The notes under the pieces: model-generated
Databases searched by the model: none
What the model was told of the DNA's origin: nothing
Seen by the model: the letters and a program-made list of their open reading frames with translations, nothing else
Program-made: the position numbers and the translations under genes
Origin: Escherichia coli
GTDB lineage: Bacteria; Pseudomonadota; Gammaproteobacteria; Enterobacterales; Enterobacteriaceae
Reading direction: 5' to 3' (one strand)
Assembly: GCF_003334405.1 (NCBI RefSeq)
Contig: NZ_QOWM01000017.1
Length of the DNA stretch: 64,000 bases
In this document: piece by piece, positions 27,279 through 37,800 of the stretch
Layout of the letters: each line of letters begins with the position of its first letter
Position numbering within the stretch: the first letter of the stretch is position 1

Positions 27279-27383
27279 GGTTTTACCCTGTAAAATAAGC
27301 TTTCCTATTATACAGGGTGTTTTTATTTTATTCGTCAGTTGTCGTTAATATTCCCGATAGCAAAAGACTATCGGGAATTGTTA

Positions 27384-29945
27384 TTACACCAGGCTCTTCA
27401 AGCGATAAATCCACTCCAGCGCCTGACGCGGGGTGAGTGAATCCGGATCAAGATTTTCCAGAGCTTCGACCGCAGGCGAAGTTTCTTCTGGTACTGACAG
27501 CAAAGACATTTGCGTACCATCCACTTGCGTAGCGGCGGCGTTCGGCGAAATGCTTTCCAGCTCACGCAGCTTTTGCCGTGCGCGCTTAATAACCTCTTTT
27601 GGCACGCCTGCCAGAGCTGCAACCGCCAGGCCGTAGCTTTTGCTCGCCGCGCCATCCTGCACGCTGTGCATAAAGGCAATGGTGTCGCCGTGCTCCAGTG
27701 CATCGAGATGCACGTTAGCGACGCCTTCCATTTTCTCCGGTAACTGGGTCAGCTCGAAATAGTGGGTAGCAAATAACGTCAATGCCTTAATCTTATTCGC
27801 CAGATTTTCCGCGCACGCCCACGCCAGCGACAGACCATCGTAGGTGGACGTTCCACGCCCGATCTCATCCATTAACACCAGACTGTATTCGGTGGCGTTA
27901 TGTAAAATATTGGCGGTTTCAGTCATCTCCACCATAAAGGTTGAGCGCCCGGACGCCAGGTCATCTGCCGCGCCTACGCGGGTAAAGATGCGATCGATAG
28001 GTCCAATCTCGACTTTTTGTGCCGGTACATAGCTGCCGATGTAGGCCATCAGCGCAATCAGTGCGGTCTGGCGCATATAGGTACTTTTACCGCCCATGTT
28101 CGGACCGGTGATGATCAACATGCGGCGCTGCGGCGACAGATTCAGCGGGTTGGCGATAAATGGCTCATTCAGTACTTGTTCAACTACCGGATGGCGACCT
28201 TCGGTAATGCGAATGCCCGGTTTATCAATGAAGGTCGGGCAGGTGTAGTTCAGGGTATAGGCCCGTTCCGCCAGGTTAACCAGCACGTCGAGTTCCGCCA
28301 GCGCGCTCGCGCTCTGTTGCAACGCTTCCAGATGCGGCAACAGCAGGTCGAACAGCTCTTCATAAAGCTGTTTTTCCAGTGCCAGTGCTTTGCCTTTTGA
28401 GGTGAGAACTTTATCTTCGTACTCTTTTAGCTCTGGAATGATGTAGCGCTCGGCGTTTTTCAGCGTCTGGCGACGCATGTAGTTGATGGGTGCCAGATGG
28501 CTTTGCCCACGGCTGATTTGAATGTAGTAGCCGTGCACCGCATTAAAGCCAACTTTCAGCGTGTCCAGGCCGGTACGTTCACGCTCGCGGACTTCCAGAC
28601 GCTCCAGATAATCGGTCGCGCCGTCAGCCAGCGCGCGCCACTCATCCAGCTCTTCGTTATAGCCCGATGCGATAACACCACCGTCGCGTACCAGCACCGG
28701 CGGTGTGTCGATGATTGCTCGCTCCAGCAGATCGCGCAGCTCGGCAAACTCGCCCATCTTCTCACGTAGCGCCTGTACCGGTGCACTATCGACAGTTTCT
28801 AACTGCGCACGCAGCTCCGGCAGTTGCTGGAAAGCGTGGCGCATACGGGCCAGATCGCGTGGGCGAGCAGTTCGTAAAGCCAGACGTGCCAGAATACGTT
28901 CCAGGTCGCCGACCTGACGCAGTACCGGCTGTAGCCCGGCGGTGAAATCCTGCAATGCGCCAATAGTTTGCTGGCGCTCAAGCAACACGCGGGTATCGCG
29001 CACTGGCATATGCAGCCAGCGTTTCAGCATACGGCTGCCCATCGGCGTGACGGTGCAGTCGAGCACAGAAGCCAGCGTATTTTCCGCACCACCCGCCAGG
29101 TTCTGGGTGATTTCCAGATTACGACGCGTCGCGGCATCCATAATGATGCTGTCCTGCTCACGTTCCATGGTGATGGAACGAATATGCGGCAGAGTCGTAC
29201 GTTGGGTATCTTTCGCATACTGCAACAGACAACCGGCAGCACAAAGTCCGCGCGGCGCGTTCTCGACGCCAAAACCGACCAGATCGCGGGTCCCAAATTG
29301 CAGATTCAACTGCTGGCGCGCGGTGTCGATTTCAAACTCCCACAGCGGGCGACGGCGCAGGCCGCGACGGCCTTCAATTAACGACATTTCAGCAAAATCT
29401 TCTGCATACAGCAGTTCCGCAGGATTAGTGCGTTGCAGTTCTGCCGCCATCGTTTCGCGGTCAGCCGGTTCGCTCAGGCGAAAACGCCCGGAACTGATAT
29501 CCAGCGTCGCGTAGCCGAAACCTTTGCTGTCCTGCCAGATAGCCGCCAGCAGGTTGTCCTGACGCTCCTGCAACAGGGCTTCATCGCTGATGGTGCCTGG
29601 CGTAACGATACGCACAACTTTGCGCTCAACCGGACCTTTGCTGGTCGCCGGATCGCCAATTTGTTCGCAGATGGCAACGGACTCTCCCTGATTCACCAGT
29701 TTGGCGAGATAGTTTTCCACCGCATGGTAGGGAATCCCCGCCATCGGGATCGGCTCTCCCGCCGAAGCACCGCGTTTGGTCAGTGAAATATCCAGCAGTT
29801 GCGACGCGCGTTTTGCGTCGTCATAAAACAGTTCATAAAAATCACCCATCCGGTAAAACAGCAGGATCTCGGGATGCTGGGCTTTCAGCCTGAGATACTG
29901 CTGCATCATGGGCGTATGGGCGTCGAAATTTTCTATTGCACTCAT
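27384..29945 (-). CDS. mutS: DNA mismatch repair protein MutS
   Basis: 853 aa; Walker [11 protein letters not shown]-terminus [21 protein letters not shown]. Confidence 0.97.
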
Positions 29946-30191
29946 GGGGTTATGTCCGGTTCCCTGATATTAAATGGGGTGTGATGGTTTTTATTTTCGT
30001 TGTAATCACATAAGGCGCACATGATACCGGAGTTAATCATTTCAGGGGAAGAAGCGAACGGCGAGTTCTTGATGCTGGTTCCGGGAAAGATGCTGTTTTG
30101 CAGCTTTTGCGTGATGCTTATGAAGCAAGTACGCAAAATTGTATCGGTTGGCTAACCCTTCTTCTTTGGAGTCATAGTGCCCTTTAAGATT

Positions 30192-30214
30192 AAGATGTAA
30201 TATAAATACATCTT
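30192..30214 (+). promoter_or_regulatory. NsrR-type operator palindrome upstream of ygbA
   Basis: AAGATGtaatataaataCATCTT: perfect 6-bp inverted repeat with 11-bp AT-rich spacer, 18 bp upstream of the ygbA ATG. Confidence 0.6.
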
Positions 30215-30231
30215 AATGAGGTGGAGGCAGC

Positions 30232-30585
30232 ATGTCCGGCAAGCGTATCTCTCGTGAAAAACTGACGATTAAAAAAATGATCGATCTTTATCAAGCGAAA
30301 TGCCCGCAGGCGTCAGCGGAGCCGGAGCATTACGAGGCGTTGTTTGTTTACGCGCAAAAGCGGCTGGATAAATGTGTGTTCGGCGAAGAGAAACCAGCCT
30401 GTAAGCAGTGTCCGGTGCACTGTTACCAGCCTGCAAAGCGTGAAGAGATGAAACAGATTATGCGTTGGGCCGGGCCGAGAATGCTGTGGCGTCATCCGAT
30501 CTTAACCGTGCGTCATCTCATCGATGACAAGCGTCCGGTGCCAGAACTGCCGGAAAAATATCGTCCGAAAAAACCTCATGAATAG
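30232..30585 (+). CDS. ygbA: Nitrosative-stress-associated protein YgbA
   Basis: 117-aa Cys-rich ORF; synteny between mutS and fhlA. Confidence 0.85.
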   Translation: MSGKRISREKLTIKKMIDLYQAKCPQASAEPEHYEALFVYAQKRLDKCVFGEEKPACKQCPVHCYQPAKREEMKQIMRWAGPRMLWRHPILTVRHLIDDKRPVPELPEKYRPKKPHE

Positions 30586-30588
30586 TAT

Positions 30589-30612
30589 GCCGGACAGGCA
30601 GATCTGTCCGGC
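30589..30612. terminator. Hairpin between convergent ygbA and fhlA
   Basis: gccggacag-gcagat-ctgtccggc, 9-bp stem. Confidence 0.5.
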
Positions 30613-30621
30613 AATTTGCAG

Positions 30622-32700
30622 TTAAATCAATGCCGATTTATCAATTCCCAGCCGCTTCATCCGTGACAGCAGGGTCGTGCGTTTCAGCCCCAGACGTTGC
30701 GCAGCGCCTTTAGGCCCGGCAACCACGCCGTTGGTTTCTTTCAGCACGCGCACAATCAACTGATATTCATCTTCGCCCTCCAGGGCGACAACCGTTGCGG
30801 CAGGCGGCGTTTCAGGTTCCGGTAAAACAATATCTGGCAATGACAGCTGCAGCACGTTACCGCGTGTTAGCAATACCGCGCGCTCAATGACGTTTTCCAG
30901 TTCGCGTACGTTACCCGGCCACTCCATGTTGCTCAAGGTGCGCAGCGTCTCGGCAGGAATGCTGTCGATATTGCGCCCCAGACGACGGGCAATTTTGAAG
31001 GTAAAGGCTTTCGCCAGCAGCGGAATATCTTCCGGACGCTCGCGTAGTGGCGGCAGGTGAATCGGGAATACGTTCAGGCGGTAATAGAGATCGCTACGGA
31101 ACTCACGGTCGGCGACCATTTTTTTCAGATCGCGGTTAGTCGCGGCGATTAGACGCACGTCCGTCTGAATGATTTTGTTGCTGCCGAGACGTTCAAACTC
31201 CTGTTCCTGCAATACACGCAGCAACTTCGGCTGTAACTCCAGTGGCATATCGCCCACTTCGTCGAGGAACAGGGAGCTTTTATCCGCCAGTTCAAAACGA
31301 CCGATACGCTGGGCGCTGGCACCGGTAAAAGCCCCACGCTCATGACCAAACAGATCGCTTTCCAGCAATCCGGCAGGCATCGCCGCGCAGTTCATTTTGA
31401 CCATGCGGCGATTATTACGCCCACTGAGATTATGGATCGCACGGGCAATCAGCTCTTTACCCGTGCCAGTTTCACCGAGGATCAGCACGGTACTGTCACT
31501 TTGCGCCACCATTTCAACTTGTTTAAGCACGCTGTACATGGCTTCGCTGCGGCCAATAATCTCGCCAAATTCACTATCAACATTGTTGAGCTGCTCGGTC
31601 AGGGCGAGGTTTTCATCAACCAGCCGTTCTTTCAGACGATGGATTTCCTGATAGGCGAGGGCGTTATCGACAGCGATTGCCACACGTTCGGCAATCTGGC
31701 GCAGTAAATTCAGATTGGTAGTGGTAAACACTTTCTCTTCGCATTGCGCCAGTTTCAGCACGCCCAGCATGGTGTCGCCAGACATCAGCGGTAACAGGCA
31801 CAAGGTTTGAATCTGGTTGCCCCAGGTGTCGAACAACATGCGTTCATAGGGGGCTAAATCGTCCCGCTCGTGGAGATTGATCAGCAGCATCTCTTTACTT
31901 TTGAACACGCGTTCGGTGAGGGTTCCGGCTTCATCGACTTCGCTCTGTTCGTGGGCGGGATGCTGTTTATCAAGATAGTGAGTGGAGTAGATGTTGAGTT
32001 TGTTTTTACGGTGGCTGCGTAAGACGATACTGATATCGTCAATGTCGAAATAGTAATGGATTTCTTTGGCGACTTCGCTGACCAGTTCGTCCATATCCAG
32101 GCGGGAAAGCACCGCGTTGGTGATGGCGACCAGGATGCGGAAGTTATCGCGTTCCCGGCATAACAACTCATAGTCGACATTGTTAACGACGCGGCTCTGG
32201 ATTTGTTCGGTGACGACAGAAACGATCTGCGTAAATGTTTGCAGACGATTGAACTCTTTTTCGCTCCAGGGGCGATCGTCATAACGAATAAATTCACAGC
32301 CACCAAAAATATGCCCTTCCGCCGCCAGTGGCATCAGGCAATAGTGACCAAATTTTGGGTATAGCCCACCTGCGTCCAGCTGCGGCCAGGTTTCACAAAA
32401 TTCTTCGTAACTGCAATGCAGCGTATCAGGGCGCGACAAAATGCTGCGTACCGGACCGTGTGCCAGAACAGTTTCGTCTTCATATTTAATGGGGGTGTCT
32501 TTTTCACGCGACGCGTAATAAGACGCACGTTGAGTCTGCGCTTGCCACAACACAATAGCCGCGTTGTCGGCGAGCGCAGAACGCTTTACCAGTTGCGAAA
32601 GAGCCTCACACAGCGAGGCCAGATCGGGCTGCTGCAATAGTGTCCGAGTGATGTCGAACAACCCTTGTTGTCCGAGATCACTCATCGGTGTATATGACAT
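30622..32700 (-). CDS. fhlA: Formate hydrogenlyase transcriptional activator (sigma-54 enhancer-binding protein)
   Basis: 692 aa from MSYTPMSDLG; AAA+ sigma-54 activator motifs ([14 protein letters not shown]); C-terminal helix-turn-helix. Confidence 0.95.
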   Translation of the reverse strand: MSYTPMSDLGQQGLFDITRTLLQQPDLASLCEALSQLVKRSALADNAAIVLWQAQTQRASYYASREKDTPIKYEDETVLAHGPVRSILSRPDTLHCSYEEFCETWPQLDAGGLYPKFGHYCLMPLAAEGHIFGGCEFIRYDDRPWSEKEFNRLQTFTQIVSVVTEQIQSRVVNNVDYELLCRERDNFRILVAITNAVLSRLDMDELVSEVAKEIHYYFDIDDISIVLRSHRKNKLNIYSTHYLDKQHPAHEQSEVDEAGTLTERVFKSKEMLLINLHERDDLAPYERMLFDTWGNQIQTLCLLPLMSGDTMLGVLKLAQCEEKVFTTTNLNLLRQIAERVAIAVDNALAYQEIHRLKERLVDENLALTEQLNNVDSEFGEIIGRSEAMYSVLKQVEMVAQSDSTVLILGETGTGKELIARAIHNLSGRNNRRMVKMNCAAMPAGLLESDLFGHERGAFTGASAQRIGRFELADKSSLFLDEVGDMPLELQPKLLRVLQEQEFERLGSNKIIQTDVRLIAATNRDLKKMVADREFRSDLYYRLNVFPIHLPPLRERPEDIPLLAKAFTFKIARRLGRNIDSIPAETLRTLSNMEWPGNVRELENVIERAVLLTRGNVLQLSLPDIVLPEPETPPAATVVALEGEDEYQLIVRVLKETNGVVAGPKGAAQRLGLKRTTLLSRMKRLGIDKSALI

Positions 32701-32773
32701 TTTGTTCTTCCAGGAAAGCACCGCAAAGCGGTGCAAAAGGTCATTGACTAACTATAGGAGATTTAGAATTTTA

Positions 32774-36602: not shown

Positions 36603-37064
36603 ATGACTATTTGGGAAATAAGCGAGAAAGCCGATTACATCGCACAGCGGCATCGTCGCCTACAGGACCAGTGGCACATCTACTGCAATTCGCTGGTTCA
36701 GGGGATCACGTTATCGAAAGCGCGCCTGCATCACGCCATGAGCTGCGCGCCGGACAAAGAACTCTGTTTCGTCCTTTTTGAACATTTTCGCATTTACGTC
36801 ACCCTGGCGGATGGCTTTAACAGCCACACCATCGAGTATTACGTCGAAACAAAAGATGGCGAAGACAAACAGCGGATTGCGCAGGCGCAACTGAGCATTG
36901 ACGGCATGATTGATGGCAAGGTCAACATCCGCGATCGCGAACAGGTTCTGGAACACTATCTCGAAAAAATCGCTGGCGTTTACGACAGCTTATACACCGC
37001 TATTGAAAACAATGTGCCGGTGAATTTAAGCCAACTGGTAAAGGGACAAAGCCCGGCAGCATGA
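36603..37064 (+). CDS. hycA: Formate hydrogenlyase regulatory protein HycA
   Basis: 153 aa; synteny. Confidence 0.9.
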   Translation: MTIWEISEKADYIAQRHRRLQDQWHIYCNSLVQGITLSKARLHHAMSCAPDKELCFVLFEHFRIYVTLADGFNSHTIEYYVETKDGEDKQRIAQAQLSIDGMIDGKVNIRDREQVLEHYLEKIAGVYDSLYTAIENNVPVNLSQLVKGQSPAA

Positions 37065-37188
37065 GCTGAGGCTTTGCCCGTTTTGCAGGCGTTACGCCTG
37101 TTTGGGGATGGGCGTGTCGATGAGTGTCGAAAATGACATTTCATCGGCATGTTTTCGTCAAAAATGACAATCACCTGAGGAATGCCTG

Positions 37189-37800
37189 GTGAATCGTTTT
37201 GTAATTGCTGACTCCACGCTCTGTATCGGCTGCCACACTTGTGAGGCCGCCTGTTCAGAGACGCATCGCCAGCACGGCCTGCAATCAATGCCGCGCCTGA
37301 GAGTGATGCTGAATGAAAAAGAATCTGCGCCGCAGCTCTGTCACCACTGTGAAGATGCACCCTGCGCGGTGGTCTGCCCGGTTAACGCCATCACCCGCGT
37401 CGATGGGGCCGTGCAGTTGAATGAAAGCCTGTGCGTAAGCTGCAAGCTGTGCGGCATCGCCTGCCCGTTTGGCGCAATTGAATTTTCCGGCAGCCGTCCG
37501 CTGGATATTCCGGCAAACGCCAATACCCCGAAAGCGCCACCGGCACCGCCTGCTCCGGCGCGTGTCAGCACATTGCTTGACTGGGTGCCAGGTATTCGCG
37601 CGATCGCCGTCAAATGTGACCTTTGTAGCTTTGATGAACAAGGTCCGGCCTGCGTGCGGATGTGCCCGACTAAAGCCCTGCATCTGGTGGATAACACCGA
37701 TATCGCCCGCGTCAGCAAACGTAAGCGTGAGCTGACCTTTAACACGGACTTTGGCGATCTCACCTTGTTTCAGCAGGCTCAAAGTGGAGAGGCTAAATGA
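37189..37800 (+). CDS. hycB: Formate hydrogenlyase 4Fe-4S ferredoxin subunit HycB
   Basis: 203 aa; multiple CxxCxxCxxxCP motifs. Confidence 0.95.
   Translation: MNRFVIADSTLCIGCHTCEAACSETHRQHGLQSMPRLRVMLNEKESAPQLCHHCEDAPCAVVCPVNAITRVDGAVQLNESLCVSCKLCGIACPFGAIEFSGSRPLDIPANANTPKAPPAPPAPARVSTLLDWVPGIRAIAVKCDLCSFDEQGPACVRMCPTKALHLVDNTDIARVSKRKRELTFNTDFGDLTLFQQAQSGEAK

Follow-up and report, generated by a model that had tools for sequence, protein, structure and literature searches.

The ygbA gene of Escherichia coli lies between mutS and fhlA. In the window, that is, the whole stretch of 64,000 nucleotides (64 kb) that was analyzed, mutS occupies positions 27384-29945 on the minus strand and is separated by an intergenic region of 286 nt from ygbA, the gene that would be under the control of the operator described below. 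The ygbA coding sequence (30232-30585, plus strand) specifies 117 amino acids and is given by both the open reading frame list and the RefSeq annotation. The fhlA gene (30622-32736, minus strand) is convergent with ygbA. The surrounding region is 100% identical to that of E. coli K-12 MG1655 and many other strains, and a 24-kb stretch around the site is 100% identical to K-12-type (phylogroup A-like) genomes. The identity of the ygbA product is established by matches to the Pfam family YgbA_NO (PF11756, E = 1.4e-40) and to the NCBIfam equivalog NF007713, for which the score of 274 bits compares with a cut-off of 234. A search for a solved structure of any YgbA relative found none. The 117-residue protein carries a cysteine cluster of the form C-x9-C-x2-C-x3-C (KCVFGEEKPACKQCPVHC), a spacing that suggests metal or Fe-S binding. 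One group reported failing to construct a ygbA mutant of Salmonella (PMC2884951). Ahead of the gene, a Shine-Dalgarno region, GGTGGAGG, can be read at 30220-30227 on the plus strand, with its GGAGG core at 30223-30227, 4 nt before the ATG; TGGAGGCA is invariant among Escherichia alleles. Behind it, where the convergent genes ygbA and fhlA have their stop codons, a G+C-rich hairpin with a 10-nt stem, TGCCGGACAG-GCAGAT-CTGTCCGGCA (30588-30613), lies between the two and probably ends the transcription unit of ygbA. This hairpin was missed by a terminator scan because it has no T run.

The intergenic region between mutS and ygbA also contains an annotated open reading frame. RefSeq (PGAP) places a 44-amino-acid hypothetical protein, WP_000611932.1, at 30021-30155 on the plus strand, and in some strains the frame is annotated as longer, reaching into the ygbA -35 region. 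No NCBIfam family matched its product, and it is doubtful that the frame is a real gene. In or near it are found an 8-nt inverted repeat, formed by TTTTGCGT (30105-30112) and ACGCAAAA (30131-30138), and a terminator-like hairpin (30092-30104).

Upstream of ygbA, the 23-mer AAGATGTAATATAAATACATCTT occupies exactly positions 30192-30214. Its last base stands 18 nt upstream of the first base of the ygbA ATG (30232), with 17 nt between the site and the start codon, in agreement with the distance of 18 bp given in a preliminary description of this DNA. That description also called the element a perfect 23-bp palindrome, which is ruled out by comparison of the 23-mer with its reverse complement: 18 of the 23 positions agree, that is, 9 of the 11 symmetric pairs. 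The pairs that fail, both of them A/A, lie 1 and 3 nt from the center (30203). A perfect inverted repeat is nonetheless present in a different frame. A repeat search followed by a pair-by-pair check places it at 30189-30217, with 11-nt arms ATTAAGATGTA (30189-30199) and TACATCTTAAT (30207-30217) that flank a 7-nt asymmetric center, ATATAAA (30200-30206), and that reach 3 nt past the coordinates first given on either side. Inverted repeats of this quality (perfect arms no shorter than 11 nt, gap no longer than 10 nt) are found three times in the window, as against 0.24 expected from 100 dinucleotide shuffles of the same DNA. The other two resemble the rpoS and mutS terminators. The first of these is a hairpin with 13-nt arms, AAAAGGTCCGATG-CC-CATCGGACCTTTT (20536-20563), which is probably the rpoS terminator, and the second, ATTCCCGATAG...CTATCGGGAAT (27350-27378), lies just past the mutS stop codon.

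In an 11-1-11 frame the same 23 nucleotides read as an operator for NsrR, AAGATGTAATA-T-AAATACATCTT (30192-30214, unstranded), an assignment drawn from weight matrix, half-site matches, and conservation. E. coli K-12 has nsrR; the gene is outside this window. NsrR is a nitric oxide (NO)-sensitive [Fe-S] repressor (PMC5320621). A symmetrised position weight matrix (PWM) was built from the 25 remaining NsrR sites of 11-1-11 form in Table 4 of the same source (PMC5320621), with ygbA left out. Under this matrix the ygbA site scores 23.0 bits and is the top-scoring position of the 64-kb window. From the exact tail probability, such a match has p = 1.2e-8 per position, so that 7e-4 such matches would be expected in 64 kb and 0.05 in a 4.6-Mb genome. 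The runner-up, a site between hycA and hycB (37131-37153), reaches 16.9 bits and is itself in the training set, and all remaining positions of the window score at most 14.2 bits. Against the consensus AAGATGYATTT-N-AAATRCATCTT the ygbA site has 2 mismatches in 22 specified positions. Its right half, read on the bottom strand (AAGATGTATTT), matches the enterobacterial half-site, the consensus for which is quoted in PMC10783083, at 11 of 11 positions; the left half matches at 9 of 11, departing from the consensus at positions 9 and 11, where A stands instead of T. The earlier suggestion that the palindrome matches the NsrR operator pattern, with an NsrR weight matrix named as the means of checking it, is borne out by these figures.

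The ygbA site shares most of its features with NsrR operators characterized at other genes. The operators at ytfE, hmp, hcp-hcr, and yeaR of E. coli and Salmonella are 23-bp inverted repeats of 11-1-11 form, and the half-site AAGATGYATTT is common to them and to the ygbA site. They also have the same outer bases (AA, G, and A on one side, with T, C, and TT on the other) and the same proximity to an NO-induced gene's start codon. With a PWM score of 21.6-23.0 bits, the ygbA site falls within the range of published NsrR sites (12.6-32.2 bits). The ytfE site is a true perfect palindrome, with all 11 pairs symmetric, whereas the ygbA site falls two pairs short of this and has an asymmetric center that contains a putative -10 hexamer. 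As catalogued in Table 4 of PMC5320621, the ygbA operator of strain CFT073 is found at the same locus, in the same register, and at the same distance from the ATG, with 20 of 23 bases identical.

The involvement of NsrR in control of ygbA is documented. Control through this inverted-repeat motif was noted already in 2005 (PMC1274295). In PMC5320621, ygbA is given as NsrR-regulated in E. coli on the authority of Bodenmiller and Spiro (2006) and Partridge (2009), and the ygbA promoter as bound by NsrR in the K-12 ChIP-chip experiment of Partridge (2009). In a Salmonella nsrR mutant, ygbA mRNA rises 31.8-fold (PMC2884951). The placing of ygbA in the NsrR regulon by the preliminary description accords with these sources. 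ChIP-seq of NsrR in CFT073 gave no peak at ygbA, which the authors consider a false negative, and the NsrR proteins of K-12 and CFT073 are identical (PMC5320621). In CFT073, ygbA is among the most nitrate-induced genes, and it responds to anaerobic nitrate (PMC5320621). The NsrR site at ygbA is one already documented, having been in the literature since 2005-2009.

Anaerobic nitrate is a condition that also engages FNR and NarL/NarP, and the palindrome might accordingly be read as the operator of another dimeric regulator, such as IscR, FNR, or NarL/NarP of the nitrate/nitrite response, with the effect of NsrR on ygbA being indirect. The NarL heptamer is TACYYMT, and each arm of the palindrome contains TACATCT, which agrees with it at 6 of 7 positions. 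These heptamer-like arms, however, point apart with a 7-nt gap and do not form the 7-2-7 arrangement; the best match to the NarL/P 7-2-7 motif in 30150-30245 has 3 mismatches in 14 positions and lies at a different register. E. coli has IscR as its other Rrf2 paralogue, and IscR operators are also palindromic, serving a dimeric Fe-S protein of that family. The best matches in the same interval have 9 mismatches to either IscR consensus (of 25 positions for type 1 and 24 for type 2), compared with 2 of 22 for NsrR, while FNR has 4 mismatches in 10 and CRP 5 in 10. None of the consensus sequences tried, namely those of IscR types 1 and 2, FNR, NarL/P, CRP, Fur, and LexA and an OxyR-like sequence, fits the element. 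Against these motif comparisons and the published binding of NsrR at the ygbA promoter in vivo (PMC5320621), control by a different regulator through this site is very unlikely.

Conservation across species gives a further view of the NsrR operator. With one genome taken per species, 80 loci with ygbA were obtained; they represent Escherichia, Citrobacter, Salmonella, Klebsiella, Enterobacter, Kluyvera, and Raoultella and reach as far as Rahnella and Hafnia. Over the 80 species, the top PWM score within 300 nt upstream of ygbA is 19.9 bits at the median; it is at least 15 bits in 70 of them and at least 10 bits in 79. Control blocks of 300 nt from the same loci never reach 15 bits (0 of 778; maximum, 13.8). 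With the site as anchor of the alignment, the columns flanking it carry 0-0.4 bits. Within the site, conservation is symmetric, with 1.8-2.0 bits for AA at positions 1-2 and TT at positions 22-23, 1.9 bits each for G6 and C18, and 2.0 and 1.7 bits for A8 and T16, respectively. Such a pattern is the signature expected of a dimeric protein that reads two equivalent half-sites. The site thus combines the half-site architecture, the regulatory location, and the conservation with its target gene that belong to an enterobacterial 11-1-11 NsrR operator. At many loci of the Citrobacter group a conserved inverted repeat, GTCACCTTCGGGTGAT, is also present across the putative -35 element, about 25-45 nt from the NsrR site on its upstream side, and farther upstream AATTCTTATTTG is conserved. 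Both are absent from the K-12 sequence.

NsrR and IscR operators both often overlap core promoter elements, and the preliminary description had the ygbA palindrome overlapping the likely -10 region. The cross-species comparison supports this. Among 81 orthologous sites there is no variation at positions 7, 8, and 12 and at least 90% conservation at position 11, and TAnnAT is found at site positions 7-12 in essentially all 81 sequences. Counted by species, the hexamers at these positions are TATTAT (52), TAAAAT (8), TAATAT (7), and TAGAAT (7), plus others. This constraint goes beyond that imposed by NsrR, because the NsrR consensus at the same positions is YATTTN. TAnnAT resembles the -10 hexamer of sigma-70 promoters, and the corresponding TAATAT at 30198-30203 (plus strand), in the left half-site, is a candidate -10 element that matches the consensus at 5 of 6 positions. 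A weak putative -35 hexamer, TAGTGC (30175-30180, plus strand), lies 17 nt upstream of it and matches TTGACA at 2 of 6 positions. The sole conserved signal upstream of the site is the G at 30177 (1.5 bits), which follows T-rich columns; together these may represent the TTG part of a -35 element with a 17-nt spacer. In 56 of the 80 species the spacer of the best -35 match is 17 nt, with 2-4 of 6 positions matching. A generic sigma-70 consensus scan of 29900-30700 called no promoter because the K-12 -35 hexamer is such a poor match, so that the case for a promoter depends on footprinting across species.

Judged by where the -10 hexamer lies, and by that alone, transcription is predicted to start on the plus strand at 30210, an A preceded by C, 7 nt after the hexamer. 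With this start the operator would span about -18 to +5 and the leader, which would include the GGAGG core, would be about 22 nt long. The distance between the site and the gene fits a short leader, since the site ends 12-22 nt before the ygbA start codon in 79 of 80 species; in Hafnia it ends 41 nt before. A full-text literature search found no mapped ygbA transcription start, and the supplements of Kim (2012) do not mention ygbA; the -10 hexamer, the start point, and the geometry of occlusion are therefore inferred.

An alternative to a protein-binding site is that the palindrome forms an RNA stem-loop in a longer ygbA leader, with a role in stability or translation, or a DNA cruciform. The 11-nt arms can fold, with a centroid hairpin of -10.4 kcal/mol, and in the minimum-energy structure (-15.8 kcal/mol; z = -2.7) an outer helix pairs 30181-30186 with the Shine-Dalgarno region. 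The orthologous sequences do not preserve such a structure. In 73 distinct sequences, 76.7% of cells are paired, as against 74.5% with shuffled partners, and the symmetry therefore arises from each half fitting one consensus and not from compensatory change. At 5 of the 11 pairs (all three of those in the flanks and two within the 23-bp frame), 29-37 of the 73 sequences are unpaired, and site positions 7 and 17 are, in DNA terms, T and G in 54 of 67 distinct sites. No Rfam family reaches its gathering score anywhere in the window, and there is no T run after 30217 of the kind that a terminator would have. Moreover, if TAnnAT is the -10 hexamer, the start of transcription would lie inside the right arm and the hairpin would therefore never be made. 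A structured leader was rejected for the missing covariation and the position of the -10 hexamer, and the non-protein reading as a whole is highly improbable. As for a chance palindrome without operator function, for which it can be said that promoter regions are A+T-rich and hence have more short palindromes and that the clean symmetry is a property of one E. coli allele only, its probability is vanishingly small against the rarity of equally good PWM matches and of such long perfect arms in a window of this size and the presence of the site at the same place in 79 of 80 species between unconserved flanks.

The element at 30192-30214 is very probably an NsrR operator superimposed on the core promoter of ygbA. 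In such an arrangement NsrR, a repressor of the Rrf2 family that carries an iron-sulfur cluster and serves as a sensor of NO, would bind in its holo form as a dimer to the 11-bp half-sites 30192-30202 and 30204-30214. Its footprint would cover the putative -10 hexamer and the predicted start, keeping RNA polymerase off the promoter. Nitrosylation and degradation of the cluster by NO would then take NsrR off the DNA and allow ygbA to be transcribed with its predicted short leader. Thus the overlap of operator and promoter points to repression by occlusion that is relieved by NO.

Structural work on a homologous NsrR offers a model for how the two functions may be accommodated in one sequence. 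In the crystal structure of Streptomyces coelicolor [4Fe-4S]-NsrR on the hmpA1 operator, an Rrf2 dimer binds a 23-bp pseudo-palindrome; its base-specific contacts are limited to the outer parts, leaving the central 7 bp free of them, and loss of the cluster, driven by NO, releases the DNA (PMC9338935). This pattern of contacts matches the conserved arms and free center of the ygbA site, although the organism and the operator sequence differ. According to PMC10783083, no structure of an enterobacterial NsrR-DNA complex exists, and it is by analogy that the Streptomyces contact map may be applied to the ygbA site. On this map, the outer 8 bp of each arm would carry the bases specific for NsrR and the central 7 bp would hold the 3' part of the -10 hexamer. 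The asymmetric center ATATAAA, and with it A9 and A11 of the left half, would be accounted for because the 3' part of the -10 hexamer sits in a stretch that NsrR does not read. Operator and -10 hexamer may thus be regarded as one composite element, the repressor-constrained and polymerase-constrained parts of which can be distinguished by comparison of species. By this site ygbA is identified as belonging directly to the nitrosative-stress regulon, and beyond this annotation the site has little significance.

The operator is not uniform within Escherichia. The exact 56-bp promoter segment of K-12 (30176-30231) is found in 2106 of 5372 complete E. coli genomes (39%), and other genomes have it at 95-99% identity (437), at 90-95% (398), or at about 86% (2432). 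The O121-type segment has exact copies in 1297 genomes, and 1146 have a version that is one or two changes away. The whole mutS-ygbA intergenic region falls into two main haplotype groups, with about 86% identity over the 56-bp promoter segment. When representatives are aligned together with E. albertii, E. whittamii, and CFT073, the only operator positions that differ are 4 (A/T), 17 (A/G), and 20 (T/C) of the site, which are low-information positions of the NsrR motif. A4 is found in the K-12 allele alone, where it pairs with T20. The allele shared by CFT073 and E. albertii, AAGTTGTAATATAAATGCACCTT, differs from that of K-12 at all three positions and has 7 of 11 symmetric pairs; it is the allele of the strain that gave no ChIP-seq peak. 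Of the five alleles seen, namely those of K-12, O55:H7, RMDEC465, O121, and CFT073, that of K-12 is the most symmetric (9 of 11 pairs, as against 7-8 in the other four), and the unusually clean look remarked upon in the preliminary description is therefore a peculiarity of the K-12 allele. In a relative sense the remark holds, as only ytfE (11 of 11) is more symmetric among the 25 published 11-1-11 NsrR sites; as a statement about the element in general it does not, the striking symmetry belonging to the K-12 allele.

Polymorphism in the operator may conceivably tune the affinity of NsrR, and with it the NO threshold or the basal level of ygbA, according to E. coli lineage. In the K-12 allele two symmetric pairs are restored, together with the consensus bases A4 and T20, all of which the CFT073-type allele lacks, and this difference could be a real reason for the positive ChIP-chip result in K-12 and the negative ChIP-seq result in CFT073. 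The PWM scores of the five alleles do not favor such tuning, lying between 20.0 and 22.4 bits with a spread of about 2 bits, nor does the strong induction of ygbA that is still observed in CFT073. Tuning by lineage is, on balance, a tentative and rather unlikely proposal.

Two further palindromic sites were observed elsewhere in the window. A second NsrR-type site of 11-1-11 form, AAATGACATTTCATCGGCATGTT, lies at 37131-37153 between the open reading frames 36603-37064 and 37189-37800 (hycA-hycB), and its sequence is the same as that given for CFT073 in Table 4 of PMC5320621. In CFT073 the hycA-hycB site is under one of the strongest NsrR ChIP-seq peaks, with 16-fold enrichment, and hycB is down-regulated with nitrate (PMC5320621). 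The other, ATACTGTATGAGCATACAGTAT at 63189-63210, is a perfect palindrome with 10-nt arms and contains CTGT-N8-ACAG. We take this to be a LexA (SOS) box, which by its position should be the recA operator.
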